Origin: Pseudomonadota bacterium
GTDB taxonomy: Bacteria; Campylobacterota; Campylobacteria; Campylobacterales; Sulfurimonadaceae
Reading direction: 5' to 3'
Assembly: GCA_043797085.1 (NCBI GenBank)
Contig: JAZDQA010000013.1
Coordinates: forward strand, 241,140-305,139
DNA length: 64,000 bases
Shown here: positions 18,958 through 40,931 of the stretch, piece after piece
Position numbering within the stretch: the first letter of the stretch is position 1
How the letters are laid out: each line of letters opens with the position of its first letter
The notes under the pieces: generated by a model
What the model was told of the DNA's origin: nothing
The model's input: the letters and a program-made list of their open reading frames with translations, nothing else
The model's database searches: none
Made by a program: the position numbers and the translations under genes

Positions 18958-18963
18958 ATCGTT

Positions 18964-20079: not shown

Positions 20080-20167
20080 ATAGAGCCTTTTTGGATGTTT
20101 CTAGGCACATTTCTCTAATGCCCACAGTATTTTAGCGAAAATATGGGGAAGATGTTATAATTCCGGC

Positions 20168-22570: not shown

Positions 22571-22677
22571 AACCTCACTATAACCAGCCTACGCACATAG
22601 TAATAAAAAAATGCTTAAAAACTTTGCTTTATCCCTTACATGCTACAATGTCTTTACTTTAATATCCGAGTCTCTCA

Positions 22678-23964: not shown

Positions 23965-23968
23965 TCCC

Positions 23969-24307
23969 TTAACGGATCTTCACCAGCACTTTACGCTGAC
24001 AATCACACTCTCCAAAATAGACCCATTGTTCTTGATACATGGGTTGTGGTGCATACACAACAGGGGCTTGAACATTTTGTACGTACGTAACGCTTTCTCT
24101 TTGAGGAGAAGAGAGGGCATACCCGATAACACTTCCTACAACCAAGGGGATAACCCAATTGTTATGATGCCCTCCCCTTTCATACGACATCCGTTCGTGA
24201 TGAGAACCACGGTTACCTCTATGCTCATTCCCGCGATCCGCATAAAGCGAAGTTGAGAGAAGTGCAGTTGCACCTAAAACGGTGACGAATAATTGTAATG
24301 GTTTCAT
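23969..24307 (-). CDS. Small secreted hypothetical protein
   Basis: Signal peptide, His/Arg/Gly-rich stretch, hydrophobic segment, AGGAG RBS. Confidence 0.7.
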   Translation of the reverse strand: MKPLQLFVTVLGATALLSTSLYADRGNEHRGNRGSHHERMSYERGGHHNNWVIPLVVGSVIGYALSSPQRESVTYVQNVQAPVVYAPQPMYQEQWVYFGECDCQRKVLVKIR

Positions 24308-24406
24308 TGGAAACTCCTACTTTTTAGATAGTCGTATTGTTGCCCATAACTGTGAAGTCATTGTGGAATGGTATAATTGCCCAAATAAATACAGGAGAGT
24401 ATTGTA

Positions 24407-25168
24407 ATGAAGTATCAATGGTTAGGATTATGGGTCCTTACAGCATCGCTGTACGCTTCTCCCCAATGTTACACGCAAGGCTATGGCGACCTCATCACTT
24501 CTGTCAACGAAACGTCCCTGATCCTCAAAGATGGTACTCAATTGCCATACCATACCGACAGCGCAAAGACATCATGGGATGAAAAAATCAACAATGCTGA
24601 TTTAGAAATGCAGCTTTCACAAGCCTACGATGCCGGCGGAATAGAGACACCACCGCCCTATCTCTTTGATCCGGGACGTTTACGCTATCAGCCTTTTTTC
24701 CAAGCTCTCTACGGCAAAGATAAAAAAGCCATCGAAAAAAATCTTGTCACGATCCAATGGCCAACACTCAAAGGTTCCGTAAAACTCCCCGTCAACAAAG
24801 TGGGAGAAGTGGATAAAAAACTTTATGCAATCGGTCAAGAGATCGCAAAACTTCCTAAAAAAGATCGGATTTGGGCAGAGGGCGCAACGACTTATTGTTA
24901 TCGCGTTATCAAAGACACTGACCGACTCTCCATGCACAGCTTTGGTATCGCCATCGACTTGGCCCCAGCCACTACCCAATACTGGAAAGACGAAGCTCCT
25001 AACGAGACCGATAAAATCGGTTATAAAAATACCATGCCTATGTCTATCGTTCGCATTTTTGAAAAATATGGCTTTATTTGGGGTGGGCGCTGGTACCACT
25101 ACGATACGATGCATTTCGAATATCGTCCTGAACTCTTCGCCCCCACATGTGCTACAAAGGGTATATAA
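24407..25168 (+). CDS. Secreted M15-family peptidoglycan metallopeptidase
   Basis: Signal peptide, SMHSFGIAID, GFIWGGRW.HYDTMHFE. Confidence 0.92.
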   Translation: MKYQWLGLWVLTASLYASPQCYTQGYGDLITSVNETSLILKDGTQLPYHTDSAKTSWDEKINNADLEMQLSQAYDAGGIETPPPYLFDPGRLRYQPFFQALYGKDKKAIEKNLVTIQWPTLKGSVKLPVNKVGEVDKKLYAIGQEIAKLPKKDRIWAEGATTYCYRVIKDTDRLSMHSFGIAIDLAPATTQYWKDEAPNETDKIGYKNTMPMSIVRIFEKYGFIWGGRWYHYDTMHFEYRPELFAPTCATKGI

Positions 25169-25171
25169 ATT

Positions 25172-26503
25172 TTAGCAGCTGGTGCATGTAATCGTTTGGT
25201 TACGCCCTTGATGTTTGGCCGCGTAAAGCGCTTGATCTGCTCGTTCAATCACCATACTCAAAGCATCTTCTGTATTGACACGGGTTATCCCGATACTGCA
25301 CGTGATGTGTCCTGCTTGATTAAAAATATACGCTTCAACAGCGAGACGAATTTTTTCAGCCGCGACGTATGCTTGATCACAATCCGTATGTTGCAACAAA
25401 ACGACAAATTCTTCCCCGCCCCATCGGGCAAAGACGTCTGCCTCTCGAATCAACCCTGTGACAATCGAGCTAAACGTCTTAAGGACATAATCGCCGATAT
25501 TATGCCCATAGGTGTCATTGACTTTTTTGAAATCATCCAAATCCAGCATTAAAAGCGATAAGTCAATATTGTACCGTTTTGATGTTGCCAATTCTTTGTC
25601 GAAAAGTTCTGCAAACATATGCCGATTATTGATCGAGGTAAGAGAATCTTTGGTTGCCAAAGTGGTTAAATGTTTATTTTTTTGTTGAAGGATTTGGTTC
25701 AGTTCTTCAAATTTATCGTAATGCGTATTCAGCAACTGTGACCACTTTAAATACGTTCGAGAGATAAGATCTTGCTGTGTCACGATACCAATAATAATCC
25801 CATTCTCTACAACAACAATCCTCTTATAATGATGACTTTTAAAGAAATCAAGGGCATCACTGATCGTAGCTGTTGAGAGCATTGTTTCCAATGGTGAAGA
25901 CATCACCTCTCCAGCGGTAATACTGGAACAATGATCATCATCGATAAATTTCAAAATATCTTTGGAGGTAACAATTCCAACAGGAAGACTTTTATCTTGG
26001 ATAATGACACAATCAGAAAGAGCATCTTTCATGTATTCCAAAACATTATCCATGTTTTCCGAACAATCAAAGCTTTTAAATCCAAATTTTTTATCGAAAA
26101 TAGTTCCAAGCTGCAAACTTTCCAAAACGACCTGAGGATCGACACTTGCCACAATATCACTGTTGGTAACCAACCCATATAATGAGCCATCCTCATTGCA
26201 AACACAAATATACTCACCTGTTTTGTCCGTCATATTAAGAGCATTAATAACATTACTCTCTTTGCTTAAACGCGGAAGTGTATGCAATGAAATTTTTGAT
26301 AGCGGTGTCGAAAAATCAATTTTTTCTACTTTTAAACGAATCAAATCCTTCGAAGTAATGATGTGATGAAGGGGTCCATTCACGACGACAATACTTCGAT
26401 GCTCATGCTCGTGCATCTTTCTTAAGGCGTCGTTAATGGTATCGTTGATATCGGCACAGATAACATCCGTGGAAGCAATCAATTCAAGGGTGGGGAAAAA
26501 CAT
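25172..26503 (-). CDS. CBS-domain diguanylate cyclase
   Basis: Four CBS-like repeats (IITSKD, LVTNSD, IVTSKD, IVTQQD), DLDDFK, WGGEEF. Confidence 0.93.
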   Translation of the reverse strand: MFFPTLELIASTDVICADINDTINDALRKMHEHEHRSIVVVNGPLHHIITSKDLIRLKVEKIDFSTPLSKISLHTLPRLSKESNVINALNMTDKTGEYICVCNEDGSLYGLVTNSDIVASVDPQVVLESLQLGTIFDKKFGFKSFDCSENMDNVLEYMKDALSDCVIIQDKSLPVGIVTSKDILKFIDDDHCSSITAGEVMSSPLETMLSTATISDALDFFKSHHYKRIVVVENGIIIGIVTQQDLISRTYLKWSQLLNTHYDKFEELNQILQQKNKHLTTLATKDSLTSINNRHMFAELFDKELATSKRYNIDLSLLMLDLDDFKKVNDTYGHNIGDYVLKTFSSIVTGLIREADVFARWGGEEFVVLLQHTDCDQAYVAAEKIRLAVEAYIFNQAGHITCSIGITRVNTEDALSMVIERADQALYAAKHQGRNQTITCTSC

Positions 26504-26588: not shown

Positions 26589-26939
26589 CTATCGCCTAAT
26601 CAAAAATTCAATCACTTTTTCAACTGGACGCCCGATCAGCGCTCGATTATTCTCAATGAGAATTGGTCTTTCGATTAATTTAGGGTACTCCGCTAGGGCG
26701 TCAATAAGTTTTGATTCCTCTGTTACTTCCGCAAGTCCCAACTCTTTATACAGATCTTCTTTTGTCCGCATAAGCTCCCGCGCCGATATTCCAAGCTTTT
26801 GCAAAAGGTCCGTGATCTCTTGTCGGGAAGGTGTTGTTTCCAGATATTTAACTACTTCATAGGAAAGCCCCTTCTCTTCGAGGAGTTTGAGGGCTTCACG
26901 CGATTTCGAACATTTTGGATTGTGCCAAATGGTTATCAT
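26589..26939 (-). CDS. arsC: ArsC/Spx-family arsenate reductase (glutaredoxin type)
   Basis: HNPKCSKSR, LIERPI, IGRP; likely start MITIWH at 26939. Confidence 0.88.
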   Translation of the reverse strand: MITIWHNPKCSKSREALKLLEEKGLSYEVVKYLETTPSRQEITDLLQKLGISARELMRTKEDLYKELGLAEVTEESKLIDALAEYPKLIERPILIENNRALIGRPVEKVIEFLIRR

Positions 26940-27005
26940 GGTGTCTCTCTTTTTTATCAACATTATAACGCAACGCATTAAGGCTCTCTTGTGGAAGTAT
27001 CTATC

Positions 27006-29084
27006 TTACCATTTCCCCTCAATCGATAAAACCACCTGTGGTTTTGTATGCTCTTTATCCACCTGAGTCTGCGTAATCGCTCCTGCTGCATCGTACAGAC
27101 GTGAAGTTGTCTCTACCGTAGAAGCCGTGATATTTTTCACGTTAAACTGTAATTTAAACGTTTTATTGAGCCGTTTATTGGCATAGAAATCGAGTGTGCC
27201 GTACCCTTTTTGCGATTGGGATATGAAATACTCCTGCGGATCATCGTATCCACCGACGTAGCGATAAGCGGCTCCGTAGGTGATTTCAGAGCCTTTTAGC
27301 GTGTGATCAAAACCGAGGTTACAGGTAAAATTCGGTGTTTGTAAAAGCTCTCTTTTGACTCCGGTTAGAGTGTTCGTAATCGATGAGTCTTGCAGCGTTG
27401 CATTGGCAAAAATTCCGAACCCTGTGATGTACTCTTTGAGTGATTTTTTAACCTCTAATTCAAGACCCCACAACGATCCCTCTCCAGCATTTTCAGGGGT
27501 TTGTTCATAGCGTCCCGATACGGAGTTAAAACGGATCGCATTTTCGATTTTATCATTGATGGTTCGATAAAACCCGCCGATACTCGCTAAGCCTTTATCC
27601 TCAAAAAAATGTTCGTACCGAAGCTCATAACTCAACGCTTTCTCTTCGTTCAAATTCGGATTTCCGATCACATCGGGGCGATGGATGCTGTTTTCATCGA
27701 GGGTGCTGTTGGTACTCGCCGATAGTTGGCTGAGTCTTGGGAGACGGACGGTTTTAGCAACACTTGCACGGATATTGTCTTTTGGTGTCACCTGAAACAG
27801 TGCGTGCAGAGAGGGCGCGAAGTAACCCAGATTCGACGTTGCACCATAGTCTCTCTCTAATGTTTCATAACGAAGACCCGGGGTAATGACGATCCCCTCA
27901 TTCAGTGTATATTCGTCTTGGATATAGAGGGCGAGCTTGTCCTCTTTCATCTGAATTTTATCGTTCACAGAAGTGACATCTACCCCGTTTAACACCCGTG
28001 TCGTTTCATCGATTTGATCGCTTCTTTTGAGTTCAAATCCGGCTTTGATAAAGTGATCCTCTCGAAGTGCGGAATAATCTCCTTGAAGTCCGTAAAACCG
28101 ACTCAATACATAATCGTGATTTTTTCGGTTGTTAGCAGATGGGGTCGATAATGACTCCAAATCGGCACTCTCTTCAAACGAATGGATTTTTGCCTTCCAT
28201 TCAAAAATATCATCACCAAATCGGTGCTCCGCCCCCAATGCCGACCAAAGCATCGTATTGGTAGCATCGTCGTAACTTTGGTAACGACTTGTCGGAGTGG
28301 CTGAGCCTTCGGTTAGCGTCGTTGAATTAATCCTATCAGTATCATGATTAAACGTCACAGAGCCGTCATAGAGTATTTTAAGGCGTGAAGAGGGGGTGAA
28401 GTTCAGTTTTCCACGCAGTCCTACGGAGCGATTTTTGCTTTTATCGTCACGCTTCTCATTGGTATTTAATGCTATTTTATCGGTAAAAATATCCGTCCGA
28501 TCTACTTTACGGTTTTCAGACGCGGTAAGGTTTGCCAAATACGAAATTTTATCGATTTTCCCTTCTCGTTGAACATACGCGGTTTCACTCAAATCCTCAC
28601 CGTAGGCACCAACGGTTACTTTTGCTAACATTCGCCCCTCTGCCTTTGGTTTTTTGAGAACGACGTTGACGATCCCCCCCATCGATTCGGCAGTGTACTC
28701 TGCCGAACCGTTGGTCATCACCTCGATGCGCTCGATCATGTCGGGTGAAATCTGCTCTAACGGACTAGCACGCTTACTCGTACCCGTCGAAGTCGCCTCA
28801 CCGTCGATCATTACCACCGTGTATCCCTTACCCGGTGCACTAGCGGGTCCTTTGCCATTTGGAATCGTTACCCCAGGGGTGCGTCGGAGAATCTCTAACG
28901 CATTCGAATCCCCATACTGAGTCAATTCCTCTGCTTTGATAATCCGTTTGGCGATGGAATTATCCCGTCGCTCATCGATAGCGGAATACTCTTCGGCGAC
29001 TTGGATTTTTTCTAACGTCACAATCTCTTGCGCACACACACTGCTAATCATAGCGGTAGATGCAAGTATAATTCGATAATTCAC
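27006..29084 (-). CDS. TonB-dependent outer membrane receptor
   Basis: Probable GTG start at 29084 after AGGA; plug motifs LRRTPGV, IERIEV, GGIVNVVLK; terminal Trp. Confidence 0.93.
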   Translation of the reverse strand: MNYRIILASTAMISSVCAQEIVTLEKIQVAEEYSAIDERRDNSIAKRIIKAEELTQYGDSNALEILRRTPGVTIPNGKGPASAPGKGYTVVMIDGEATSTGTSKRASPLEQISPDMIERIEVMTNGSAEYTAESMGGIVNVVLKKPKAEGRMLAKVTVGAYGEDLSETAYVQREGKIDKISYLANLTASENRKVDRTDIFTDKIALNTNEKRDDKSKNRSVGLRGKLNFTPSSRLKILYDGSVTFNHDTDRINSTTLTEGSATPTSRYQSYDDATNTMLWSALGAEHRFGDDIFEWKAKIHSFEESADLESLSTPSANNRKNHDYVLSRFYGLQGDYSALREDHFIKAGFELKRSDQIDETTRVLNGVDVTSVNDKIQMKEDKLALYIQDEYTLNEGIVITPGLRYETLERDYGATSNLGYFAPSLHALFQVTPKDNIRASVAKTVRLPRLSQLSASTNSTLDENSIHRPDVIGNPNLNEEKALSYELRYEHFFEDKGLASIGGFYRTINDKIENAIRFNSVSGRYEQTPENAGEGSLWGLELEVKKSLKEYITGFGIFANATLQDSSITNTLTGVKRELLQTPNFTCNLGFDHTLKGSEITYGAAYRYVGGYDDPQEYFISQSQKGYGTLDFYANKRLNKTFKLQFNVKNITASTVETTSRLYDAAGAITQTQVDKEHTKPQVVLSIEGKW

Positions 29085-29097
29085 AATAGGTTCCTGC

Positions 29098-29487
29098 TTA
29101 TTTTTGTTTGTCGGTGACAATATAGAGCTGTTCATGCCCTAGACGTTTAAGAACGTCCATCACTCCAACAAAATTTTGAAATGCTGCATCTTTATCGCTG
29201 TAAAGTACAACTGTCATCTCTTTACCACCAGCCACTACACGCTGTTCAAACTCTGCCAAAGTGATCGGAGTTTTTGCCTCATCCAACATTAGAATCCCGT
29301 CTTTTCGGATAGTCAGTTTAAGTTCTGAGGGTTTATGCTCTGCAGCTGTCCCTTTGGCATCAGGCAACTCAACAGGGATTAATCCGGTACGAATAAATGT
29401 CGCCGTCGTCAATACCATGACCAAAAGAACCAGCATAATGTCGATAAAAGGAATGACGTTAATGGAATCAACCCGTTTCATTTTCAT
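29098..29487 (-). CDS. exbD: ExbD
   Basis: INVIPFIDIMLVLL, SDKD, VMDVLK. Confidence 0.95.
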   Translation of the reverse strand: MKMKRVDSINVIPFIDIMLVLLVMVLTTATFIRTGLIPVELPDAKGTAAEHKPSELKLTIRKDGILMLDEAKTPITLAEFEQRVVAGGKEMTVVLYSDKDAAFQNFVGVMDVLKRLGHEQLYIVTDKQK

Positions 29488-29490
29488 AGG

Positions 29491-29943
29491 TTACCCTCGA
29501 TTTTTATGGGCGCTAATGTCCCATTGTGTCAAAAGTCGTTCCATTTTTCGAAGCAAAATATTGTAAAAAATGATAGCAGGGATAGCAACCACCAGCCCCA
29601 TCGCCGTAGCTTTGAGCGCCAATGCCAATCCGGTCATAATCTTCTTCGGATCAACCGCACCAACATCACCGAGGCTGTAAAACGTAATCATAATCCCCAA
29701 TACCGTCCCAAGCAGTCCCACATAAGGAGCATTGGAACCGATAGTCGCAATCGTACTGACGTTATTACCTAAATCAAGCTCCAACTCCTCTTTGGTCTCG
29801 TAATCATGGATACGTACCGACCCATACGCCATCATTCTCTCGATAAAAAGCGAGAGTGAGGCAACACTCATTAACACCAAAATCCCGATAATTCCATAAT
29901 CAATCGCCGCGTGTGCGAATTCCAACATGTTGCTATTTTCCAT
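29491..29943 (-). CDS. exbB: ExbB
   Basis: NAPYVGLLGTVLGIM, ALKATAMGLVVAIPA. Confidence 0.95.
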   Translation of the reverse strand: MENSNMLEFAHAAIDYGIIGILVLMSVASLSLFIERMMAYGSVRIHDYETKEELELDLGNNVSTIATIGSNAPYVGLLGTVLGIMITFYSLGDVGAVDPKKIMTGLALALKATAMGLVVAIPAIIFYNILLRKMERLLTQWDISAHKNRG

Positions 29944-31123
29944 TTTTTTCTCCCTGTGTGGTTAATTTTAACGCTTTTCTTCTCTTCTTTTTAAGCCACA
30001 ATAGTGTTCCGGTAATCATCAAGATTATCGTCACAATGCCCGAAGCAAAAATCATCAAACGACCTGTCATTCCCAAGGCTTCACCATTATGCAAAGGAAA
30101 CTGCCAATTAATAAACGATTGTCCTGAAGATACTTTTAACGGATCTTTCACATAAAGGACTTTCCCACTATACTGATCGATCCATATTGTTGTTTGCCCT
30201 TTTGTTTTTCGGACTTCACCCTCTTGGCGTTTGTAAACTTTATACGTATCTTCAGCATCTATAGGCAAGCTGATATGACTCAATACTGCATTTGGAAAAG
30301 TACTATTTGCAATTTTCACCGCATCTTCGATAGTGATAGCCTTAGTCTCCAATAGCGTGTGCGTCGAGGTTAAATCTTTGGGTGTTTTTTCCAGCGGAGA
30401 AAAAACTTTTACTACAGGTTTGATGTATTCGGGAAAAATCAAATAGACTCCCGTGAACGTAACGACTACGAGGATGATTGCAGTGTAAATACCGCTAACA
30501 CGATGCAAGTCCAAATTAAATCGAACCGAATTTCCATCATGCTTGAGCTTTAGAGCGCGTTTGAATTTGCCATTTCTTGGCCACCATAAATAAATACCGC
30601 TTAGGACAACGATAAGCCACGCAATCCCCGAAAGCCCAACGATTGTTCGACCGGTTCCTCCCAAAAGAAGAGATGAGTGCAGTTCATAAATAGTTTTAAT
30701 CAGATGCGCTCCGTCAACGCCGTACGTGCTACGGTCACGTTTTCCCAAAACTTCTGCCGTATAAGGGTTTACCATCACTTGAAACCAATCAAATCCGCCG
30801 CAGCATTTAGGCATGCCTGCCTCAGGATGCTCTTTAGGCGTTTTAAACAACACCAAACAAACACTCTCTTTCTCTTTAGGAGGATAGATCAAAGCAGCAG
30901 GTTTATCCGGATACGCCATTTTAGCCGAAGCCAAAATTTCAGACATCGATTTTCGGTGTCCATCTCCATAATCGCTCACGGTAAATAGTTCAGGATTAAT
31001 CATCTCATCCAATGCATCGTCAAAAACAATCACACTTCCAGTAATACCAACAACGAGAAAAATTATCCCTAAAAATAAACTCAAGTAAAGATGAATCTTC
31101 ACAAAAATACTTCGTACACTCAT
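29933..31123 (-). CDS. PepSY-associated TM helix protein
   Basis: IHLYLSL, VNPYTAEVLG, ELHSSL, SGIYLWWPR, DLHRVSG, IDQYSG, PLHNG. Confidence 0.93.
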   Translation of the reverse strand: MSVRSIFVKIHLYLSLFLGIIFLVVGITGSVIVFDDALDEMINPELFTVSDYGDGHRKSMSEILASAKMAYPDKPAALIYPPKEKESVCLVLFKTPKEHPEAGMPKCCGGFDWFQVMVNPYTAEVLGKRDRSTYGVDGAHLIKTIYELHSSLLLGGTGRTIVGLSGIAWLIVVLSGIYLWWPRNGKFKRALKLKHDGNSVRFNLDLHRVSGIYTAIILVVVTFTGVYLIFPEYIKPVVKVFSPLEKTPKDLTSTHTLLETKAITIEDAVKIANSTFPNAVLSHISLPIDAEDTYKVYKRQEGEVRKTKGQTTIWIDQYSGKVLYVKDPLKVSSGQSFINWQFPLHNGEALGMTGRLMIFASGIVTIILMITGTLLWLKKKRRKALKLTTQGEKNGK

Positions 31124-31154
31124 TTGAACCTCTTTTATCGATTATGTATATTTT

Positions 31155-31961
31155 TCAACTCTCTGATTCGCTCAAAAACGCATCACGAGCCAAAACGGCT
31201 GCACCGTAGGATGTTGTAATTTGCGGAAATTCAGGGACAAAAATTTTGTGTCCTAGTTCATTTTCTATCGCGCTTACAAGCCCACCATTTAATGCCGGTC
31301 CTCCGTCAAAGTAGACATTTTCTTTGACCCCGACTCGCTTCACGAGTTTCACGATCCGTTTGGCAATCGAATAATGAACTCCCGAAACGATGTCTTCCAC
31401 GCTGTGACCATTACCTAAAAGTCCTATGATTTCAGACTCAGCAAAAACCGCACACGTACTGCTGATCGAAAGCGGTGTCCCTTTGGATTGAAAATGAAAA
31501 TCGCCAAGTTCATCCACTCCGATTTCCAAATTCATCGCGACCACATCGAGAAATTTTCCCGTTCCTGCCGCGCATCGGTCATTCATTGCAAAATTGACTA
31601 CATTTCCCTCAGCATCCAGTGAAATCGCCTTGCTGTCTTGTCCGCCGATGTTAATGATGGTTTTTATCTCTCCATACTCTTTGGCTGCTTGTTGCGCACC
31701 GATGGCATTGGCGGTAATTTCACTGATGTTTTCATCCGCCTCTTTAAAAAGTTTACGCCCATATCCTGTAGCTACCGTATAGACCACCTCACTCTCATCA
31801 ATACCTAACTCTTTTAACAGCTCCGCCAACGCCTCTTGTGCGTATTTGTAAAACATACTCCCACTCGCGCTGATTTTATGCCCGACTAAATTTTTATTTT
31901 CATCTGCAACACTAATCTTGATTGCGGTAGAGCCGATGTCGATACCTACAAAATATTTCAT
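31155..31961 (-). CDS. CoA-substrate-specific enzyme activase (HgdC/BadF-type ASKHA ATPase; DCCP-reductase-like)
   Basis: GIDIGST, ATGYGR, SEITA, IGGQDSK, MNDRCAAGTG, STCAVFAESE. Confidence 0.95.
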   Translation of the reverse strand: MKYFVGIDIGSTAIKISVADENKNLVGHKISASGSMFYKYAQEALAELLKELGIDESEVVYTVATGYGRKLFKEADENISEITANAIGAQQAAKEYGEIKTIINIGGQDSKAISLDAEGNVVNFAMNDRCAAGTGKFLDVVAMNLEIGVDELGDFHFQSKGTPLSISSTCAVFAESEIIGLLGNGHSVEDIVSGVHYSIAKRIVKLVKRVGVKENVYFDGGPALNGGLVSAIENELGHKIFVPEFPQITTSYGAAVLARDAFLSESES

Positions 31962-33229
31962 TTTTTCATTCTCTTTCGATTTTTTAATGACTCGATAAAT
32001 GCTTCAACCCGTGTGGTAAGCTGTCCTTGTTGCGATGGGCTGTACTCGCTCTCGATGTAGAGGATCGGGATACCCTCTCGCTCCATCGCGGCCAAAACAC
32101 TGCGCTGTTCCATCTCATACACTTGACACCCTGCAAATGCTTGGTAGATCACCCCATCACCGTTATAACTGCGAACCAATTGGATGATTCTGCGGATTCG
32201 GTCGTCGTTTTGGGTAAATATCGGGCAGGTACACGCTTTGAGATATTTATCCGAAACCGAATCGATCATGTCGTAGAGATTCCACTCATCCACTGCCACC
32301 ATATCGTTAAACATACGGTTCGAGCTGCACGTCTCATCGGCGACGATGATGGCATCGCTCTCTTCGATAATGAGGGGGATTTTATAGTTGGGGAAAATCG
32401 GTGGGGAACCTGTATAAACGATTCTCGGGCTTGCTTTTCCTGCCACATTGATACCTTCAATTACCCGTTGTTCCAACTCTGCGACCAGTTTCTCAACAGC
32501 ACTTATCCATTCGTCTATCTTGTCAAAAAAGAATGCGTTGGTAACCAAAAACATATCGACACCCAAGATAGGGACAATTTTATTTTTTCGAAAATCGGTA
32601 AGTTTATGATAAAGCGATTGTGCATATCCGACCTTTTTAATCGCACTCTCCAGATTGGTTCGTGTCAACTTTTTACCTTGAAACTTCGAGAGTTCAACGG
32701 CAAAATGTTTGACACTTTCGCGCCAATAATGGCGGCTCTCTTCACTCTCTTTGGTTCGTGGAAATCCAACATCGATAATCGTATGTCCCAAATTCTCGAT
32801 GATCGCACCCGCTTTGGTTTTTTGATCGCACGTCGTCGGTGAAAAGGTAATATCTGGCTTATCGGTAAAATTATCCGATGCGAACAATCCCACCGTCGCT
32901 TTAACCAGCGGACACGATTTGGAAGGCATCAAATCACTTCCGATTTCATCGTCGGTATAAAATCCGTTGCACAGTCGAATCGGCACACCATCAAGGGCAT
33001 AAATGATTTCAGAAGGGATTTGGATACACATCGTCCCGATTTTTGTTTTCCCTTCATGCAGAGGTTCGTGATGACAATAGACTTTTTCAAACAAATCGTA
33101 AAAATAATCCATACTCTTGATTGGGGATTTAAAATCCTCTTTCAACGCATTAATAACATGGATCGCCTCCATCGCTTTATGGCGATTTTGTCTCTCTTTT
33201 GCTGTTTCTATTGTATGTTCAGTGTTCAT
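31958..33229 (-). CDS. 2-hydroxyacyl-CoA dehydratase-family protein with double-cubane cluster protein (DCCP)-like Cys pattern
   Basis: Start MNTEH at 33229 after AAAGGA (423 aa); GTMC, SCPLVK, TTCD.K, DETC, CTC, AGC, GQLTTRVEAF. Confidence 0.85.
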   Translation of the reverse strand: MNTEHTIETAKERQNRHKAMEAIHVINALKEDFKSPIKSMDYFYDLFEKVYCHHEPLHEGKTKIGTMCIQIPSEIIYALDGVPIRLCNGFYTDDEIGSDLMPSKSCPLVKATVGLFASDNFTDKPDITFSPTTCDQKTKAGAIIENLGHTIIDVGFPRTKESEESRHYWRESVKHFAVELSKFQGKKLTRTNLESAIKKVGYAQSLYHKLTDFRKNKIVPILGVDMFLVTNAFFFDKIDEWISAVEKLVAELEQRVIEGINVAGKASPRIVYTGSPPIFPNYKIPLIIEESDAIIVADETCSSNRMFNDMVAVDEWNLYDMIDSVSDKYLKACTCPIFTQNDDRIRRIIQLVRSYNGDGVIYQAFAGCQVYEMEQRSVLAAMEREGIPILYIESEYSPSQQGQLTTRVEAFIESLKNRKRMKK

Positions 33230-34232
33230 TATTATCCTTTCTCTGATCCATCGCCATACGCACAAGAAAGCCTTCTTTGGTCGATTCGAAAATAGTGGCT
33301 CCCATAAAATTAGCCTCCAAACATCCCTCTTCAGGACACGCTGCGATACATTTGAGACAAAGGGTACAATCTTCAGTAACTAAATTTTTGCTCGTCACAT
33401 CATCGGCGATTTCGAGAATGTCCATATCACACGCATGATAGCAATCCCCGCATTTGGTACATTTAGCTCCATCTTTATAAAGCTTCAATAAGGCGGGTTT
33501 GGAAAAAATATATTGCAATGCCGCCATCGGGCAAAAGTAGCAAAAAAACCGTTTTTTGACAAACGACCCCACTAAAAACAGTCCTGTTATAATCATCCCT
33601 AGTGCCGTCATAACCATATCTGTCTTCGACGAAAAATCAATGTAGAACTGATTAAAATGACCTGTAAATGCCGGAATCATCATCCGTCCGGGACAAATAT
33701 CGCAAAATGGCATTGAGAGCCCATTGGGAAGTTTCGGAAGACCAAATACCGAGTTGGCAATCATCACGGGGAGCAAGAGCAAAAGAATTAAAAGAATGTA
33801 TTTGATACTTTTGATTTTTCCACGATTCGCCCATGAGTATTCACTGTAACGGATTCTGGATTTTTCACGCAACATCGTGAGCCAGTCTTGCATCGTCCCA
33901 AGAGGGCACACAAATCCACACCACCCTTTGTTCAACACCCAAAACCACACCATAAACATCCCAAGGGATATGAGAAAAGCGTATCCGGCAAATCCCATAA
34001 ACATATCAATCGGATGTTTCAAATCATGTTGAAGTTCCCCCACATAACACTTTCCGCCCGTCCCTTCTCCGTTAAATACACACGCAAAAGTAGGAAGCTT
34101 ATCGCCCAAATCGAGTCCGACATATCCGCCGTACACCATTAGAACAAACGCAACGATCTGAAACCAAAACCGAAACCGCACGAGGTTCATATTATTGACT
34201 GCACGACGGAGACTAAATTTATTCTTCGTCAA
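33219..34232 (-). CDS. NapH/MauN-type membrane polyferredoxin
   Basis: TM helices; WCGFVCP, FCDICP, FCYFCP, CTKCGDCYHAC, CTLCLKCIAACP. Confidence 0.9.
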   Translation of the reverse strand: MTKNKFSLRRAVNNMNLVRFRFWFQIVAFVLMVYGGYVGLDLGDKLPTFACVFNGEGTGGKCYVGELQHDLKHPIDMFMGFAGYAFLISLGMFMVWFWVLNKGWCGFVCPLGTMQDWLTMLREKSRIRYSEYSWANRGKIKSIKYILLILLLLLPVMIANSVFGLPKLPNGLSMPFCDICPGRMMIPAFTGHFNQFYIDFSSKTDMVMTALGMIITGLFLVGSFVKKRFFCYFCPMAALQYIFSKPALLKLYKDGAKCTKCGDCYHACDMDILEIADDVTSKNLVTEDCTLCLKCIAACPEEGCLEANFMGATIFESTKEGFLVRMAMDQRKDNNEH

Positions 34233-35172
34233 AATAGATCTCCTTGGGCGTTTTGCGCTTGCGTCGTCGGTTGTAATAAAGCCCCAGCGAAAAGACCAAC
34301 ATCACCCCAATAGCGGTTGCGAAGCCTAATACTTTTGATTCGTATTCCAGCGGAGATGCACCAAAGGAGAGAGGCAAAGTCATTACATAATGAACAGCAT
34401 GATATTTTTCTGTGCCGTAGATTCCCGATTCATTCACATCGTATGACGCTTCAACAATCATCTTTTCGGAACGCTTTTTTTCTTTTTCGGTTGCCGCATA
34501 GGTACTGCGCGGAATCTCAAATGAGGTCATCCCCTCTTCATCGGGTTGAATCGTGGCATTCCAGCCGCTCTCCATGCTCACTTTTAACGGAACATCTTTT
34601 TGTACTACCCCTTTATAATAAATCGTGAAAGGGGCAATATCACCCGAATACAAACAACAGTTAATATGGTGTTTTCGAATCGGTTTCTCCATAATCAACT
34701 CAAACGGAAGCTGTGCGAGAGGTTCATGATCGTAATGGGAATCGTTCGTTTTCCCACGGATCTCTTTAAGTAGCGTTTGAGAGATATTCCCCTCTTTGTT
34801 ATGAATTCTTACCGATGAAAGATTTACATGAAGGACACCATCTTGAACGGATTTTTGTTCAAAATAAAGACGATAGCCCCCTTTGTGTACCGGAGTAAAA
34901 GAAATTTTCCCTCCCGACACATCCAGCTTTGTTACCGCATGATCCATATCGCGAACATAGACAACCGTATTATTTAAATCACGGACTTTTTTATTCTCAT
35001 CGAATGTCCCTTTTTTGATGAAAAATTCTTTGGCTTCTACTGTTTTATCCCCTGCCTTGCAACACGATTTTTTCTTGGATTCATCCATCCATACAAAATC
35101 ATCCCCAAAAAGAGGCAATGACCCATACGTGATCGCAATGACCAAAAATGTTTTTGATAGGATCGATTTCAT
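34219..35172 (-). CDS. Periplasmic protein with C-terminal membrane anchor (DUF4198-like)
   Basis: Signal peptide, PFELI, YYKG, ...DEEG..SF; terminal TM plus basic tail; two CC motifs. Confidence 0.65.
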   Translation of the reverse strand: MKSILSKTFLVIAITYGSLPLFGDDFVWMDESKKKSCCKAGDKTVEAKEFFIKKGTFDENKKVRDLNNTVVYVRDMDHAVTKLDVSGGKISFTPVHKGGYRLYFEQKSVQDGVLHVNLSSVRIHNKEGNISQTLLKEIRGKTNDSHYDHEPLAQLPFELIMEKPIRKHHINCCLYSGDIAPFTIYYKGVVQKDVPLKVSMESGWNATIQPDEEGMTSFEIPRSTYAATEKEKKRSEKMIVEASYDVNESGIYGTEKYHAVHYVMTLPLSFGASPLEYESKVLGFATAIGVMLVFSLGLYYNRRRKRKTPKEIYFDEE

Positions 35173-35174
35173 AA

Positions 35175-37451
35175 TTAAAAATTTGCCGATAAATTAATCG
35201 TTACACCACGCCCTGGCATACGATAGTATTCATAATACTCTTTATCCAATAGGTTATCTATCATCACGCTGGCTTTTATATTTTTGTTGATTTTATAATC
35301 TGCTTTCAAGTCAACAACTGTATATTTACTATAACCTGTCCATATACCCTTAACTATATCCGAATTGTCATTGCTGTTAAATACTTCTCCTACATAACGA
35401 CCTGAAAGTGCTCCTGAATAATCTCCATATTGAGCTAAGAATGCCAAAGTTGCCGTATCTTTAGGGACATTGGTTACCCGCTTTCCTTCCATCCCCGTAT
35501 TGGTATTATCTTTGGTAATTTTAGAATCCGTATACGAGTAGCTCCCACGCACTTCCAACCAATTTACTAAAGGATATTCTCCTGAGAGTTCAATCCCTTT
35601 TGCCAACGCTTCTCCAGTATTTTCCTGTTTAGCAATATAATCAACCACTTTGTTGATGATTGGATCGGTATATTGAGGTACTTTGGTAATTTTTTGATAA
35701 ATCAAATCGGTTGTCTTGGTTACAAAACACGTAGCCATTACCTTTCCGCCATCCACAAAGTGATATTCAACTCCAAGATCAAACGCTTTTGCTTTCTCAG
35801 GCTTCAAATCCGGATTTGAATAAATCATCTTTCCATTGGGTGCTGCGTTACCTGAAAAAGTAGGATTAGCAAAAAGATAATAGTTTGTCGGCGCACGGAA
35901 TCCTGTCCCTACCGAACTTTTAATCGACGTTCGATCATTGACCATATAAACAGCGGCGATTTTTGGGCTAAATGATGATTCCTTGCGATCTGAATACACA
36001 GTCGTCCCCGGAACAGAGCCTGTGGTCACAACACCTACCCCACCCGCTTTCCACATATCATATCGCCCACCTACGTACAACAATAGATCATCATTAACCG
36101 CAATTTGGTCTTGAAGAAAAATTGAGTTCGTAATACTTCTAGCATCAATCCGATCCAGCTCCGCCGTTTTGGTATCCATATTCGTCCAATCCGAAACCGC
36201 GTATTTTTTCTGATGAAGACGCCCAACTTCCGTCGCAACACCCGTAATCAATAAATGGCTATCACCAATAGGAGTAGTCAGCTGTGCTGAAGCATTGGTT
36301 GTACTATTAGGTGAATTACTAAGCGTCCCAGCACCAGAGGTCAATGTTGCCGTTGCACCAATAGCAGAGCTCCAATACTCACGATCAATTTTCCCAAAAT
36401 TGAGACTCAACTTACTGTCTCCCAATTTTCCATCATATCCAGCAAAATAGCGCAATGCAGTATTACCCATCGGAACAGAACCGGCAAAATCTTGTTCTTT
36501 AATCGTAGTCGCTTTGCCGTTTAGATTTAGGCTTGTTGCCGTTGTCCCTATTGCGATTGGATTCCCACTTGTATCAGTCAAATAACTATTGTATCCACGA
36601 TTCAGACTCTTTGCATCGGAATAAGCGAAACCTGCATTCACGGTTGAAGTTGGAGAGAGATCATAATAGAGTTTCGCATGAATATTTTTCTCCATAGAGG
36701 CATTAGTTCCCTTATCCCCGACAATATAAGTAGTTGCTCCCGCCGTTGTGGTGGTTTGTGTCGCACCATTAACAACAACAGCACTACCAGCAGGTGTCCC
36801 AGTAGGTGTTTTGGTTACATACTCGGCGATATATCCTTCACGATAGTTTTCAGAGACTCCAAATACAACCCCAAGACCATTTTTGAATTTATTGCGGTAC
36901 AACGCACTTGCATGATCTCCCGATGCATCACCAAAACCTTTGCCAACATTAAACGACATTTCCTCTTTCGTCGGTGCTTTGGTCGTAATACTAATAACTC
37001 CACCTACTGCGTTACTACCGTATAATGAGGAACCAACCCCCGGCACTACCTCAATACGATCCACATCATCCATTGTAACCATAGACCAGTTAACTTGACC
37101 CGAATAGGCATCGACCATATTCATCCCATCTACCAAGACTGCCATCTTGGTCAATGTTCCCCCTGCACCTCGCATAACAAGATATCCTGTTGCACCAGGT
37201 CTAGAATTACCCAATGCTCCTCCTCGCAGATAAAGCCCAGGGACTTTAGCATTTAACGCATCCCCTATACGCGGTGTGTTCATTTTTTCCATATCTTCAG
37301 CCGTTACTACTGAAACATTCACTGGAGCTTCCAATGTTGATTGCTCAATTTTTGATGCACTTATAGACACATCCCCCAAATTAACCGTTTCAGTAGCATA
37401 GGCGCTACTGCAAAATATAACTGCCGCCATTGATAGCTTAACTACTTGCAT
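35175..37451 (-). CDS. TonB-dependent outer membrane receptor
   Basis: ATG 37451 after AAGGA; VPGL, DRIEVV.G..SSLYG..A.GGVI.I.TK, GFRAP, NPDLKPE, NLLDK.Y, terminal Phe. Confidence 0.95.
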   Translation of the reverse strand: MQVVKLSMAAVIFCSSAYATETVNLGDVSISASKIEQSTLEAPVNVSVVTAEDMEKMNTPRIGDALNAKVPGLYLRGGALGNSRPGATGYLVMRGAGGTLTKMAVLVDGMNMVDAYSGQVNWSMVTMDDVDRIEVVPGVGSSLYGSNAVGGVISITTKAPTKEEMSFNVGKGFGDASGDHASALYRNKFKNGLGVVFGVSENYREGYIAEYVTKTPTGTPAGSAVVVNGATQTTTTAGATTYIVGDKGTNASMEKNIHAKLYYDLSPTSTVNAGFAYSDAKSLNRGYNSYLTDTSGNPIAIGTTATSLNLNGKATTIKEQDFAGSVPMGNTALRYFAGYDGKLGDSKLSLNFGKIDREYWSSAIGATATLTSGAGTLSNSPNSTTNASAQLTTPIGDSHLLITGVATEVGRLHQKKYAVSDWTNMDTKTAELDRIDARSITNSIFLQDQIAVNDDLLLYVGGRYDMWKAGGVGVVTTGSVPGTTVYSDRKESSFSPKIAAVYMVNDRTSIKSSVGTGFRAPTNYYLFANPTFSGNAAPNGKMIYSNPDLKPEKAKAFDLGVEYHFVDGGKVMATCFVTKTTDLIYQKITKVPQYTDPIINKVVDYIAKQENTGEALAKGIELSGEYPLVNWLEVRGSYSYTDSKITKDNTNTGMEGKRVTNVPKDTATLAFLAQYGDYSGALSGRYVGEVFNSNDNSDIVKGIWTGYSKYTVVDLKADYKINKNIKASVMIDNLLDKEYYEYYRMPGRGVTINLSANF

Positions 37452-37493
37452 TAATATCCTTGTATTAAATAAATCCAAGAATTATTTCAAAGT

Positions 37494-37534
37494 AGTGTTA
37501 CATTTGTGTTAAGTCTTAACAGTAATGTAACACT
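37494..37534. promoter_or_regulatory. 41-bp palindrome in a divergent promoter, probable operator
   Basis: AGTGTTACATT-tg-TGTTAAG-t-CTTAACA-gt-AATGTAACACT; 18 of 20 positions pair. Confidence 0.7.
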
Positions 37535-37580
37535 TTTCTTTCATACTTACACAAATAAATCTTAGTAAGAAGCTATTTTA

Positions 37581-38234
37581 ATGATGCAATCGTTACCTCT
37601 TTTTTCATTGTTTCTTATTGCATTATCCTATGGTGCAACGGCATGTATGCTCTCGTGTATGCCTATCCTTTCCCCGATTCTTTTAGCCAACAGCGCCACA
37701 CGCCAAGAAAGCCTTCGAGTCCTTATCCCCATCACCGCAGGTCGCATTAGCGGTTATACACTCTTAGCAGTTATTGCCTTCACAGGAGCAGTCTTTGTCC
37801 AATCACTGCTCAAAGATAAAACCTTAATGGGCTATGTTTTAGGAGCTGTAACCCTGCTGCTTGCACTCAAACAACTGCTCGCCATTCGGACAAAACAAAC
37901 CTGTTGCGCTCAAACCACACAACCCAGCAAAAGCACCAATACCACCCTTTTTGCGACGGGACTTCTTCTATCGATGTCCATTTGCGCACCCGTTGCTACC
38001 ATGATGACACTCAGTGCAACCGCTCCCTCATTGGGCTGGGCAGCTTTATACGGATTGTTTTTCGGGCTGGGAGCTACGCTGTTGTGGTTTTTCTTTTTTT
38101 CCGTTGTTCTAACAACCGCACTCAAAGAAAGCCTTAATCACCTATCACGCTATCGACGCACCATTGAAATAATGGCTCCGATTTTATTGGCGTGTGTCGG
38201 AATTTTAATTTTTAATGGATGGATACGACTATGA
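37581..38234 (+). CDS. DsbD_2/CcdA/UreH-like six-TM protein
   Basis: CMLSCMP, GRISGY, ICAP, FFGLG motifs. Confidence 0.8.
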   Translation: MMQSLPLFSLFLIALSYGATACMLSCMPILSPILLANSATRQESLRVLIPITAGRISGYTLLAVIAFTGAVFVQSLLKDKTLMGYVLGAVTLLLALKQLLAIRTKQTCCAQTTQPSKSTNTTLFATGLLLSMSICAPVATMMTLSATAPSLGWAALYGLFFGLGATLLWFFFFSVVLTTALKESLNHLSRYRRTIEIMAPILLACVGILIFNGWIRL

Positions 38235-38935
38235 CTATAACCATGACCCCTCAGACCAAAGCTTTTGGACTCTCCTTCGCGTTGCACACCTTAATGGCGC
38301 TTCTTGCGATGTTAGCACTTACGCGGATGTACCATCCTGTTAATCTGGATGTTATCCCAATGAAACATGTCACTCTTGTGACACTATCTCATGTGACTCC
38401 AATGCCCATACAACCCACAATCACACCGCCAACCACAACAATCACACAACCCGCTCCCACACAGCCCATCACAAAACCAATCGTGCCTACCAAAACCCAA
38501 CCTATTGTGACTCAAACAATACCTGTACCCTCCATTCCTGCTGTCGTACATCAAGCTATACCTACAGAAACAAAACCTGTTGTAGTCGCGGAAACAAAAG
38601 CTATACCTGTTCAAGCCGTCATTCCCTCAAAACCAAAAATCGATACAACCTCTGAAAAAAAATTGTTCTATGCCTCATTACGTACAAAAATCCAACAAAA
38701 CCTTCGCTATCCGTTTGCCGCAAGACGTGTAGGGAAAGAGGGAGAAGTTGGTGTTCGCTTCACACTTTCTGATGATGGTTCAATCCGTAATATCTCAGTT
38801 CAACGCGGTGAAGAAATTTTTCATAACGCCGCCAAAGCAGCCGTTGCATCAACCGCCGGTATCGATATTCCTAAAAATCTTATCGACTCTCTGCCAGTAG
38901 AGATGGATTTAACCCTCGAATTTAAGCTTAACTAA
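38219..38935 (+). CDS. tonB: TonB energy transducer
   Basis: SFALH (SxxxH) TM, Pro/Thr-rich linker, YPFAARR.GKEGEV.V.F. Confidence 0.92.
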   Translation: MDTTMTITMTPQTKAFGLSFALHTLMALLAMLALTRMYHPVNLDVIPMKHVTLVTLSHVTPMPIQPTITPPTTTITQPAPTQPITKPIVPTKTQPIVTQTIPVPSIPAVVHQAIPTETKPVVVAETKAIPVQAVIPSKPKIDTTSEKKLFYASLRTKIQQNLRYPFAARRVGKEGEVGVRFTLSDDGSIRNISVQRGEEIFHNAAKAAVASTAGIDIPKNLIDSLPVEMDLTLEFKLN

Positions 38936-39011
38936 TATACTATTTAATTATTTTAATTATAATACTAGTGTATTCTATTAAAATACTATCTTGCAAAATT
39001 GGAGAAACAAA

Positions 39012-39395
39012 ATGTCCAAAAAAACATTTTTAAAAATAAGTGCATTGATTGCACTTGCGGTAACGATCCCTCAAAGTTTTGCGCAAGCAAACGGTGAATC
39101 TCTTTTTGAACAAAAATGCGCCATGTGCCATTTGAAACAAAGACCCTCAGCCGATGAGATGAAAAATATGATTGCGCCCCCGATGATGGGTGTTATGCGC
39201 CACGTCAAACAAGCAAAAACAAACCGCACTGAAGCAATCGCATTTATCGCCGACTATCTCTTTGCTCCGTCCCAAAAAAGTGCCGTTTGTCTTCCTGAGT
39301 CGATTGCAAGATTTGGCGTCATGCCCTCACAAAAAGACAATCTTACAAAAGAAGAGGCGCAAACGGTTTCTGCCTATATTTACGATACTTTTTGA
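39012..39395 (+). CDS. Periplasmic monoheme cytochrome c
   Basis: Signal peptide, CAMCH, APPM, FGVMP. Confidence 0.9.
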   Translation: MSKKTFLKISALIALAVTIPQSFAQANGESLFEQKCAMCHLKQRPSADEMKNMIAPPMMGVMRHVKQAKTNRTEAIAFIADYLFAPSQKSAVCLPESIARFGVMPSQKDNLTKEEAQTVSAYIYDTF

Positions 39396-40530: not shown

Positions 40531-40931
40531 TGAAAAATCTATTGATAATTAGCCTGCTATGCGGAAGTTTATCAGCATCTGAGTATAGCGTTATTATTTC
40601 TAAAAAAATTTCTGTGATCGAAACATCTTCGCAACAGATACGAGATCTTTACCTCATGAAACGTCACACCATCGGGAATCAAAAGATTATCCCTCTTAAT
40701 CTACTAGGACAAGACGCTTCTCGAATCGCATTTGAAAATGAGATACTAAAAATGGATCGAGACCGACTTAATACCTATTGGATAAAACAACATTTCCAAG
40801 GGATCACCCCTCCTGTTACGCAACCTTCTCACGAATCCATCAAAGCATTCGTCCAAAACGTCGAGGGTGCTATCGGCTACATCCCCTCATATATGGTCGA
40901 TTCAAACGTAAAGGTGATTTATGAGTTTTAA
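40530..40931 (+). CDS. Small periplasmic-binding-protein-like (PstS-like fragment) protein
   Basis: Signal peptide, IRDLYL, YW....F.G..PP, FV...EGAIGYI. Confidence 0.75.
   Translation: MKNLLIISLLCGSLSASEYSVIISKKISVIETSSQQIRDLYLMKRHTIGNQKIIPLNLLGQDASRIAFENEILKMDRDRLNTYWIKQHFQGITPPVTQPSHESIKAFVQNVEGAIGYIPSYMVDSNVKVIYEF

Follow-up and report, generated by a model that had tools for sequence, protein, structure and literature searches.

A conserved TonB-dependent operon with a double-cubane-type ATP-driven reductase pair and a possible role in copper scavenging

For the known double-cubane cluster proteins (DCCPs), neither the natural substrate nor the partner proteins have been assigned (Haft preprint). 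A copper-starvation operon of Bordetella pertussis codes for the TonB-dependent receptor CrtA and the PepSY_TM protein CrpH; according to the part of the report available to us, haem-copper oxidases are supported by CrpH, which has a synthetic growth defect with ccoG, the gene for a putative copper reductase (PMC13038864). Zcp and a nickel protein from Ideonella are DUF4198 proteins that bind metal in the periplasm, as described in the accessible portions of two reports (PMC12663993, PMC12537917), and we found no other DUF4198 proteins with published biochemistry. Here we describe a TonB uptake operon in a stretch of 64,000 nucleotides (the window; contig JAZDQA010000013.1 of assembly GCA_043797085.1, positions 241,140 to 305,139) from a member of the Sulfurimonadaceae, in which the genes for a double-cubane-type reductase and an activase lie between two TonB receptor genes. 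The architecture is real, conserved and undescribed in the literature searched, and probably represents TonB-dependent metal acquisition that has recruited an ATP-driven reductase of the double-cubane type. An earlier reading made from the sequence alone had stated that no characterised system has this architecture, and our literature search agrees: among the papers listed, we found none that joins double-cubane proteins with TonB, or 2-hydroxyglutaryl-CoA dehydratase with TonB and Sulfurimonas, although the supplements of the Haft and Méheust preprints, which lie outside this search, may list such clusters.

The operon consists of ten open reading frames (ORFs) on the minus strand. By their coordinates, neighbouring ORFs overlap by 4–47 bases or are spaced 2–31 bases apart, and the widest overlaps are a product of choosing the longest possible starts. 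The true start of the first receptor gene is likely the ATG at about position 37451. The sequence-only reading had described these ten genes and a divergent DsbD_2/tonB pair, and all twelve are real ORFs of the families and in the places that it gave (Pfam, NCBIfam; Table 1). Its label “HAD-family” for the reductase denotes the 2-hydroxyacyl-CoA dehydratase (HGD-D) family; the gene itself is confirmed. Likewise, it had noted that acyl-CoA pathway genes are not adjacent, and a Pfam scan detected none in the remainder of the window. ExbB, ExbD and a TonB C-terminal domain (Pfam, NCBIfam) together provide a complete TonB-energizing set. In one run of an RNA library, which may contain DNA, eight assembled pieces of at least 99% identity (at most one difference each) map to receptor 1, the periplasmic protein encoded by the second gene, ExbD, receptor 2, arsC and a neighbouring GGDEF gene. 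No piece of the same run falls on the reductase, activase, NapH-like or PepSY_TM genes, and the uncovered parts prove nothing.

A search with the reductase found 223 relatives, and the best 80 of these gave 79 distinct loci, from Sulfuricurvum, Sulfurimonas, Sulfurovum, Arcobacteraceae, Sulfurospirillum, Hydrogenimonas and one Sedimenticola. Identity of the reductase to the Sulfuricurvum loci is 89–95%, which places the window in this genus or near it. Gene presence was scored with profiles of the window proteins against all reading frames, and counts out of 47 refer to the full-flank set, that is, loci with at least 7 kb upstream and at least 4 kb downstream of the reductase gene. The loci were chosen through reductase similarity and are mutually kin, nearly all from one phylum, so the counts are not independent and are inflated by kinship. 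The NapH-like gene and a homologue of the 317-residue DUF4198-like protein are present in all 47 full-flank loci. The activase, DsbD_2 and a TonB receptor are found in 45 each, followed by ExbB (30), ExbD (29), TonB (27), ArsC (2) and PepSY_TM (1). With shorter flanks admitted, the NapH-like gene is found in 66/66 loci whose sequence extends 1.1 kb or more upstream of the reductase gene, and the activase in 72 of the 74 with sufficient downstream sequence. The order of the core genes is retained in at least six genera (reductase identity 57–95%) and in one gammaproteobacterium, while the flanks vary. Because the core recurs in 45–47 of the 47 full-flank loci, the arrangement is not due to chance.

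Lack of synteny between reductase and TonB genes in other genomes had been named beforehand as one finding that would refute the sequence-only reading, and the counts for the TonB receptor, ExbB and TonB show that the synteny exists. Its gene set needs trimming: PepSY_TM and arsC lie outside the conserved core and are lineage-specific additions in Sulfuricurvum, and the remaining link between reductase and TonB genes is conserved. The “anchored periplasmic protein” and the divergent DsbD_2 of that reading are both part of the core, the former as a protein of the DUF4198 fold. The broader proposal of an import-and-reduce system for a scarce metal chelate, cofactor or organosulfur compound is upheld by synteny as far as TonB uptake with a double-cubane-type reductase and activase is concerned; among the listed substrates a scarce metal is favoured, with the regulon pointing to copper, and nothing was found for organosulfur. 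Nine NapH-like genes are not followed by a reductase gene, and all nine still lie within 10 kb of one. This fits a reading in which one reductase pair serves several capture units and would thus be a source of electrons rather than a substrate-specific enzyme.

A permease of the resistance-nodulation-division (RND) type often stands behind the activase in related loci. In three of nine Pfam-annotated loci it follows directly on the same strand, without an adjacent fusion or outer-membrane partner in the scan, and in a fourth it is encoded on the other strand, together with both partners. The three that follow the activase directly, of about 1030 residues (L025:12145-15249, L067:12082-15162, L038:12100-15174), score far under the NCBIfam cut-offs, and the window has none. 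Such a permease without partners may be an atypical component of the uptake system.

The best family match of the reductase is the double-cubane family NF040772, with 324.6 bits against a cut-off of 350; the next family, BzdN, scores 81.4 bits. Residues 68–428 align with the solved DCCP structures (PDB 6ENO, E 1.3e-64; 7YYL, E 4.7e-65). Seven cysteines follow in the published order, at residues 80, 99, 118, 146, 313, 345 or 347, and 380, and six of them align with cysteine columns of DCCP. The gaps between them are 18, 18, 27, 166, 31 or 33, and 32 residues, three of which are 1–2 residues under the published DCCP motif CX19CX18-19CX29CX166-170CX32-34CX32C (Haft preprint). We leave strict membership of the double-cubane family open, because the curated cut-off is missed. 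The activase passes the cut-off of TIGR00241 (228.7 bits, cut-off 125.4), matches the structures of HadI (4EHT, E 5.9e-62) and DCCP-R (7YYL_E, E 6.8e-40), and keeps both cysteine contexts of the cluster. Its gene overlaps the 3′ end of the reductase gene by 4 bases, and each protein is encoded by a single copy in the genome. By sequence, the two proteins appear to resemble the DCCP/DCCP-R pair.

The product of the second gene, a protein of 317 residues, has no Pfam hit and no match to PF10670 at E ≤ 1. Of 26 members of its family, 18 match PF10670 at E ≤ 1; the best E is 1.6e-8 and still under the gathering score. An AlphaFold model of the protein has a mean predicted local distance difference test (pLDDT) score of 77.7. 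In a Foldseek search with this model the top match is Zcp (9MHL; E 1.4e-8, probability 1.00, TM-score to the target 0.65), and the nickel-bound DUF4198 protein from Ideonella (9GCB) is matched with E 5.2e-7 and probability 1.00. On the strength of the model, the predicted fold of the 317-residue protein is the DUF4198 metal-capture fold, and we refer to it as the capture protein. In an alignment of its subfamily, the signal peptide is followed by a Cys-Cys pair, an HHINCCLYSGD block is conserved, and the C-terminal membrane helix carries a cytoplasmic tail that is also conserved.

The third gene encodes a NapH-like polyferredoxin with Fer4_5 CxxxCP motifs and two [4Fe-4S] motifs, all of whose cysteines are invariant in an alignment of 31 sequences, as is a Cys51/Cys62 pair in the first loop. 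CcoG is, we assume, also a Fer4_5-type polyferredoxin. The protein misses the cut-offs for NapH proper (NF007013, 69.4 vs 234; TIGR02163, 68 vs 213), and Pfam scans of the window revealed no nap genes near the cluster. In most other genera the capture domain is the C-terminal part of a protein of 770–920 residues, the N-terminal part of which is a second NapH-like polyferredoxin. The periplasmic linker of these fused forms is rich in His, Gly and Met. A NosL domain is present in three of six long forms examined, with the full CxxC...CxxxC pattern in one of the three. The fusion implies that polyferredoxin and capture domain work together, and a predicted complex of the two window proteins also supports this. 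The complex scores 0.64, a mark reached by 116 of 157 solved complexes and by 2 of 215 mismatched pairs, and the best of three controls scores 0.00. At least 65% of contacts are shared between runs, and the pLDDT of the partners is at least 71. We infer from this model that the capture protein contacts the polyferredoxin, with its anchor helix (residues 277–302) against NapH-like residues 193–225. We also considered the C-terminal tail of the NapH-like protein as a dock specific for the reductase and rejected this, as the tail is equally conserved in the nine copies without a following reductase gene.

The PepSY_TM protein aligns over residues 4–383 with FoxB (7ABW, E 3.5e-32), and its histidines 11, 149, 207 and 345 align with FoxB histidines that we take to be the haem ligands. 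The haem-ligand role of these residues is supported in the available part of PMC13038864. The window protein, which also carries a CC motif, is probably a di-haem protein. DsbD_2 carries CxxxC and CC motifs and is a candidate inner-membrane permease for soft metals or a candidate conduit for thiol electrons. The only cysteines of receptor 1 are at positions 23 and 584 and those of receptor 2 at 34 and 605, and an OprC-type CxxxM/HxM site is absent from both. NCBIfam and PDB searches with the two receptors gave generic matches only as to specificity. Both probably import a bound rather than an ionic form. Orthologues of receptor 2 (56–91% identity) are restricted to Sulfuricurvum loci.

The 100-bp intergenic region between the divergent operons contains a near-perfect palindrome of 39 bp. 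It is made up of two inverted copies of a direct repeat, one facing each operon, in which each arm reads TTAACAC-N4-GTAACAC with a period of 11 bp (also written CTTAACAC-N3-TGTAACAC). OmpR/PhoB-type regulators bind direct repeats of this pattern. Other Sulfuricurvum loci retain the operator but vary at its centre, and in most other genera the first receptor gene is preceded by related repeats of the form TTAACA-N5-TTAACA. A genome search for the outer palindrome with three mismatches gave no more matches than its control; it was the direct-repeat reading that was productive. The consensus CTTAACACNNNTGTAACAC has five sites at up to one mismatch in the 2.40-Mb genome, and no site turns up in the reversed-sequence control even when two mismatches are allowed. 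Two of the sites are the arms in the window. The third lies 45 nt upstream of a gene for a 676-residue receptor (contig C13:37082-39112), the fourth upstream of an operon on contig C7 that comprises response regulator, histidine kinase, ExbB, ExbD, 2-oxoglutarate (2OG)-Fe(II) oxygenase and receptor genes, and the fifth 49 nt upstream of ccoN, in reverse orientation.

The contig C7 operon (18255-25900, L089) has a perfect copy of the operator in front and begins with genes for a PgmG-like mutase and a dihydroorotase, followed by those for the response regulator, kinase, ExbB, ExbD, oxygenase and receptor. Its ExbB and ExbD, encoded beside the response regulator and histidine kinase, are 89% and 86% identical to the window copies. 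The kinase has 288 residues and two membrane helices with almost no periplasmic loop. The regulator is the best match in its own genome (41% identity) of the regulator that adjoins the cluster in Sulfurospirillum-type loci, and homologues are encoded in the flanks of seven further loci. Control by an OmpR-type response regulator would be the best explanation of this regulon on the sequence data. The housekeeping genes at the head of the contig C7 operon are odd company, and behind the operon lie YfiR-like and GGDEF genes.

The other genes that carry the operator point towards copper. The best family of the 676-residue receptor is TonB-copper TIGR01778, with 195.8 bits and below the cut-off of 472, and its best PDB match is OprC (6FOK, E 2.5e-27). 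A CxxxM motif in the plug and an HxM motif in the barrel are aligned with OprC, in which we take them to be the copper ligands. Operator sites occur in 12/12 other genomes of the same genus that were searched, with 2–7 in each and none in the control. The 32 proteins encoded at 30 of these sites comprise 14 receptors, six PgmG-led operons, four ccoN and two ArsC, as well as one secreted CopZ/MerP-like HMA protein with a divergent DsbD_2, one response regulator, one FGE-sulfatase-like protein and three without a family. Both CxxxM and HxM are present in 14 of 16 operator-linked receptors checked, and the ccoN site recurs in four further genomes, 47–89 nt upstream. In five genomes of other genera, a shorter repeat pattern gave 10, 5, 4, 5 and 1 sites, compared to 0, 0, 2, 6 and 0 for the control. 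These sites precede genes for OprC-like receptors (2), NosL-domain proteins (3 at 2 sites), DsbD_2, TonB (2), ExbB (2), the regulator (4), ccoN (1) and the cluster's own receptors. Taken together, the regulon is centred on what by sequence appear to be copper import, copper chaperones and the cbb3 oxidase.

In some related loci, though not in the window, the stretch from the direct-repeat promoter element to the start codon of a receptor gene holds a conserved 5′ leader (L012:556-640, L012:4245-4329, L013:5937-6021, L016:4308-4391, L061:3596-3679, L063:3809-3894), with divergent forms upstream of receptor genes in L010, L079 and L077. Judged by eye, a stem covaries (CCTTGCC/GGCAAGG, CCCTTGC/GCAAGGG, CTTCATCT/AGATGAAG). 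A loop, AGTTTGGCGAC, is conserved, and the 3′ strand of a second hairpin can pair alternatively with a GGUGY box near the ribosome-binding site. RNAalifold on a MAFFT alignment of eight sequences, of which three divergent ones are misaligned, gives –6.48 kcal/mol with compensatory changes in 5 of 14 pairs, which is weak support. The leader matches no Rfam family even at E ≤ 5. A covariance model finds seven copies in five genomes; as all seven precede the same receptor type, they are uninformative on the ligand. The leader is a candidate new riboswitch or attenuator.

We give roughly even chances to the reading that the cluster is a TonB-dependent metal-scavenging system for sulfidic habitats, most likely for copper, within a small regulon under a response regulator. 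Copper as the metal, taken by itself, is somewhat better than an even bet, and it is favoured because the operator is shared with OprC-type receptors, NosL- and CopZ-like proteins, DsbD_2 and ccoNOQP. In the scheme that we propose, the two receptors, powered by ExbB-ExbD-TonB, would bring bound copper, as a chelate or a copper-sulfide species, into the periplasm. The anchored capture protein would then take the copper at its Cys-Cys and His-His-x-x-Cys-Cys sites and would lie against the NapH/CcoG-type polyferredoxin, which would perform the redox step at the membrane; Sulfuricurvum would add the FoxB/CrpH-like PepSY_TM protein at this stage. DsbD_2 might carry the metal through the inner membrane, or else transmit thiol reducing power across it. 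In the cytoplasm, the double-cubane protein and its ATP-hydrolysing activase would supply or consume electrons of very low potential, coupled to the polyferredoxin. Any single version of the role of the double-cubane reductase in a copper system is doubtful. One specific version, in which the pair is an ATP-driven injector of electrons through the polyferredoxin to the periplasm-facing capture protein and frees copper from sulfide or tight chelates, we think unlikely.

Several observations weigh against the copper scheme. To our knowledge no chemistry of copper uptake needs a potential below –500 mV, which makes the placement of the reductase the weakest link. The reductase itself falls 25 bits short of the NF040772 cut-off and has three cysteine spacings that are off by 1–2 residues. 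The identity of the metal would follow from the other genes that share the operator. The window receptors lack the CxxxM/HxM site of OprC and reach no specific NCBIfam cut-off, and the DUF4198 proteins studied so far take zinc or nickel through histidines, not copper through cysteines. The operator, moreover, resembles what we take to be the ArcA box of E. coli, so the signal for the regulator could be redox or oxygen and not a metal. In other genera, the short pattern is enriched unevenly, and 10 of its 25 sites lie by unrelated or unassignable genes. Lastly, the regulon includes an oxygenase of the 2OG-Fe(II) type that is paired with a receptor, and haem iron, besides copper, is abundant in the cbb3 oxidase. 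An oxygenase/receptor pair of this kind has been linked to iron in Caulobacter in the accessible part of the source.

Uptake of cobalt, a corrinoid or nickel, in which the reductase would either reduce cobalt or a corrinoid or help to release the metal, appears improbable. Reduction of Co(II) to Co(I) requires a very low potential, which would explain an ATP-driven reductase in an uptake operon. Extra receptors of 566–588 residues in two related loci (L010, L012) have TonB-B12 TIGR01779 as best family, at 124.8 and 133.9 bits and below the cut-off of 599.7. DUF4198 proteins bind nickel and cobalt and are neighbours of TonB receptors and NikR, according to the available part of PMC12537917. On the other hand, the genes that share the operator are of the copper type and no cob, cbi or nik genes are seen in the nine annotated loci. 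An Rfam search of the window and 18 related loci found no cobalamin riboswitch and returned only tRNA, tmRNA and RNase P at gathering score, and RF00174 likewise has no match in the 95.9%-complete genome of the window.

We put iron uptake, in which a ferric chelate or an iron-sulfide species would be reduced in the periplasm, at the same low level of probability. The operator is a direct repeat of the response-regulator type and not a Fur-type 7-1-7 palindrome, and the Cys-Cys, Met-rich and His-rich sites suit a soft metal. The likeness of the PepSY_TM protein to FoxB would speak for iron, but this protein is found in just 1 of the 47 full-flank loci. In the part available to us, a preprint proposes clusters of PepSY-like, DUF4198 and TonB-receptor genes as systems of reductive iron assimilation (10.1101/2021.01.07.425746). 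The regulon can be read in both directions: the 2OG-Fe(II) oxygenase with its receptor would fit iron, and as ccoNOQP encodes a haem-rich enzyme the link could be an iron-sparing response, but NosL, CopZ-like proteins and OprC-type CxxxM/HxM receptors are copper signatures.

A third alternative, which we hold to be very unlikely, is a non-metal substrate such as an organosulfur compound, selenium or a sulfur species, reduced in the cytoplasm by the double-cubane enzyme while the membrane proteins only feed electrons. Vicinal cysteine pairs could carry sulfur or selenium, SelD is encoded in the genome, and an ArsC-family reductase ends the operon in Sulfuricurvum but is present in only 2 of the 47 loci. 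The conserved periplasmic partner has a predicted metal-capture fold, related forms carry NosL domains and His/Met-rich linkers, the regulon is of a metal type, and no genes for catabolism or assimilation of such a compound are seen in the nine annotated loci. That the reductase and activase are functionally unrelated to the TonB genes and adjacent merely by descent in one phylum is hardly credible: kinship among loci picked by reductase similarity does inflate the counts, but the core order persists across the genera and the gammaproteobacterium named above while the flanks differ, genes overlap or nearly abut, and every NapH-like gene without a following reductase is still close to one.

Copper scavenging is the reading that we favour, and the system is of interest beyond this locus. 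DCCPs are nitrogenase-like ATP-driven reductases without an assigned natural substrate, and the conserved operon and its regulon suggest a concrete and testable job for them. If the pair does inject electrons towards the capture protein, this would give a double-cubane enzyme a physiological role for the first time and would also be a new route of metal acquisition. A further question of interest is how bacteria obtain copper for their oxidases and for nitrous oxide (N2O) reductase where sulfide makes copper nearly insoluble, which matters for the release of N2O from sulfidic zones. Experiments in cultivable relatives can start from the shared operator, the candidate regulator and the predicted complex at the membrane.

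The surroundings of the operon contain further gene sets. Downstream of tonB is a gene for a small c-type cytochrome (Table 1), homologues of which are confined to the flanks of three related loci (L008, L062, L074); it is uncertain whether it is part of the uptake system. Genes of cyclic di-GMP signalling flank the cluster at 22678-26503 and 40921-42435 and encode a GGDEF protein with a zinc-binding CZB domain, a GGDEF protein with CBS and a HAMP-HD-GYP protein. The HD-GYP gene and two preceding unknown genes are syntenic with tonB in locus L003. A set of the type II dimethyl sulfoxide (DMSO)-reductase family lies at 48676-57244 on the minus strand and comprises a molybdopterin subunit of 970 residues, a four-cluster subunit of 365, an EB_dh-type haem subunit of 402 and a NarJ-like chaperone; it is adjoined by a ferredoxin-domain protein of 381 residues and a double-rhodanese protein of 385. 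At 7394-11209, also on the minus strand, is the gene for a protein of 1271 residues with six Big_12 Ig-like repeats, which adjoins a type I secretion set (ABC transporter, HlyD, OEP) and is probably a secreted adhesin.

Table 1 Features of the operon and its divergent neighbours, with positions in the window
Feature	Position	Strand	Evidence
TonB-dependent receptor 1, operon gene 1	35175..37478	-	Pfam Plug E 1.6e-23, barrel E 5e-53
Membrane-anchored periplasmic protein of 317 residues, predicted DUF4198 fold	34219..35172	-	AlphaFold/Foldseek; signal peptide and C-terminal membrane helix
NapH/CcoG-type membrane polyferredoxin	33219..34232	-	Pfam Fer4_5 E 2.5e-11, Fer4_10 (dicluster domain) E 8.7e-9
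DCCP-like reductase, HGD-D family, single subunit	31958..33265	-	Pfam HGD-D E 7.4e-90
ATP-dependent [4Fe-4S] activase (archerase)	31155..31961	-	Pfam BcrAD_BadFG E 7.3e-54
PepSY_TM membrane reductase, FoxB-like	29933..31123	-	Pfam PepSY_TM E 5.3e-68
ExbB, exbB2 type	29491..29943	-	TIGR02805 161.6 bits (cut-off 135.35)
ExbD	29098..29487	-	Pfam ExbD E 5.5e-24; TIGR02804 108.2, below cut-off 123.45
TonB-dependent receptor 2	27006..29135	-	Pfam barrel E 4e-43, Plug E 5e-12
Glutaredoxin-type ArsC-family reductase, last gene	26589..26978	-	TIGR00014 141.7 bits (cut-off 106)
Operator between divergent promoters	37495..37533	.	sequence reading
DsbD_2 (UreH-like) membrane protein, divergent	37581..38234	+	PF13386 E 1.5e-15
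TonB, divergent	38219..38935	+	TonB_C E 1.2e-10
Small periplasmic c-type cytochrome, 3′ of tonB	38991..39395	+	Cytochrome_CBB3 E 2.7e-7

Compared to described systems, the locus shares parts with several. Like DCCP and DCCP-R of Carboxydothermus hydrogenoformans (6ENO, 7YYL), it encodes a single-subunit HGD-D protein followed by an ATP-dependent [4Fe-4S] activase. Here, however, the pair is found inside a TonB uptake operon with a membrane polyferredoxin, and the activase is closer to HadI. The capture protein has in common with Zcp of Neisseria gonorrhoeae (9MHL) and the Ideonella nickel protein (9GCB) the predicted fold, the periplasmic site and the tie to metal starvation and TonB receptors. 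It differs from both in being only about 10% identical, anchored by a membrane helix with a cytoplasmic tail, equipped with Cys-Cys and HHxxCC motifs, and fused to a polyferredoxin in other genera. The systems of preprint 10.1101/2021.01.07.425746, in its accessible part, likewise pair NapH-like, PepSY-like or DsbD-like conduits with DUF4198 proteins and TonB receptors, and periplasmic metal reduction is proposed for them. In contrast to the PepSY-like/DUF4198/DUF2271/ApbE clusters in that part, the window and the nine annotated loci contain no FMN-binding, ApbE or DUF2271 genes and have the ATP-driven reductase pair instead. Receptors with CxxxM and HxM, as in the copper receptors OprC and NosA (6FOK), belong to the regulon of the window operon, whereas its own two receptors are without this site. 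The CrtA-CrpH system of B. pertussis, as far as the available part of its report goes (PMC13038864), also combines a TonB receptor with a PepSY_TM haem reductase in one operon. That system has a functional tie to haem-copper oxidases and to CcoG, a putative copper reductase of the polyferredoxin type, and the window operon shares its operator with ccoNOQP. Unlike in CrtA-CrpH, PepSY_TM is optional here; the core consists of the DUF4198-like protein, the NapH-like polyferredoxin, the double-cubane reductase, its activase and DsbD_2, and the window operon is under a repeat of the response-regulator type.

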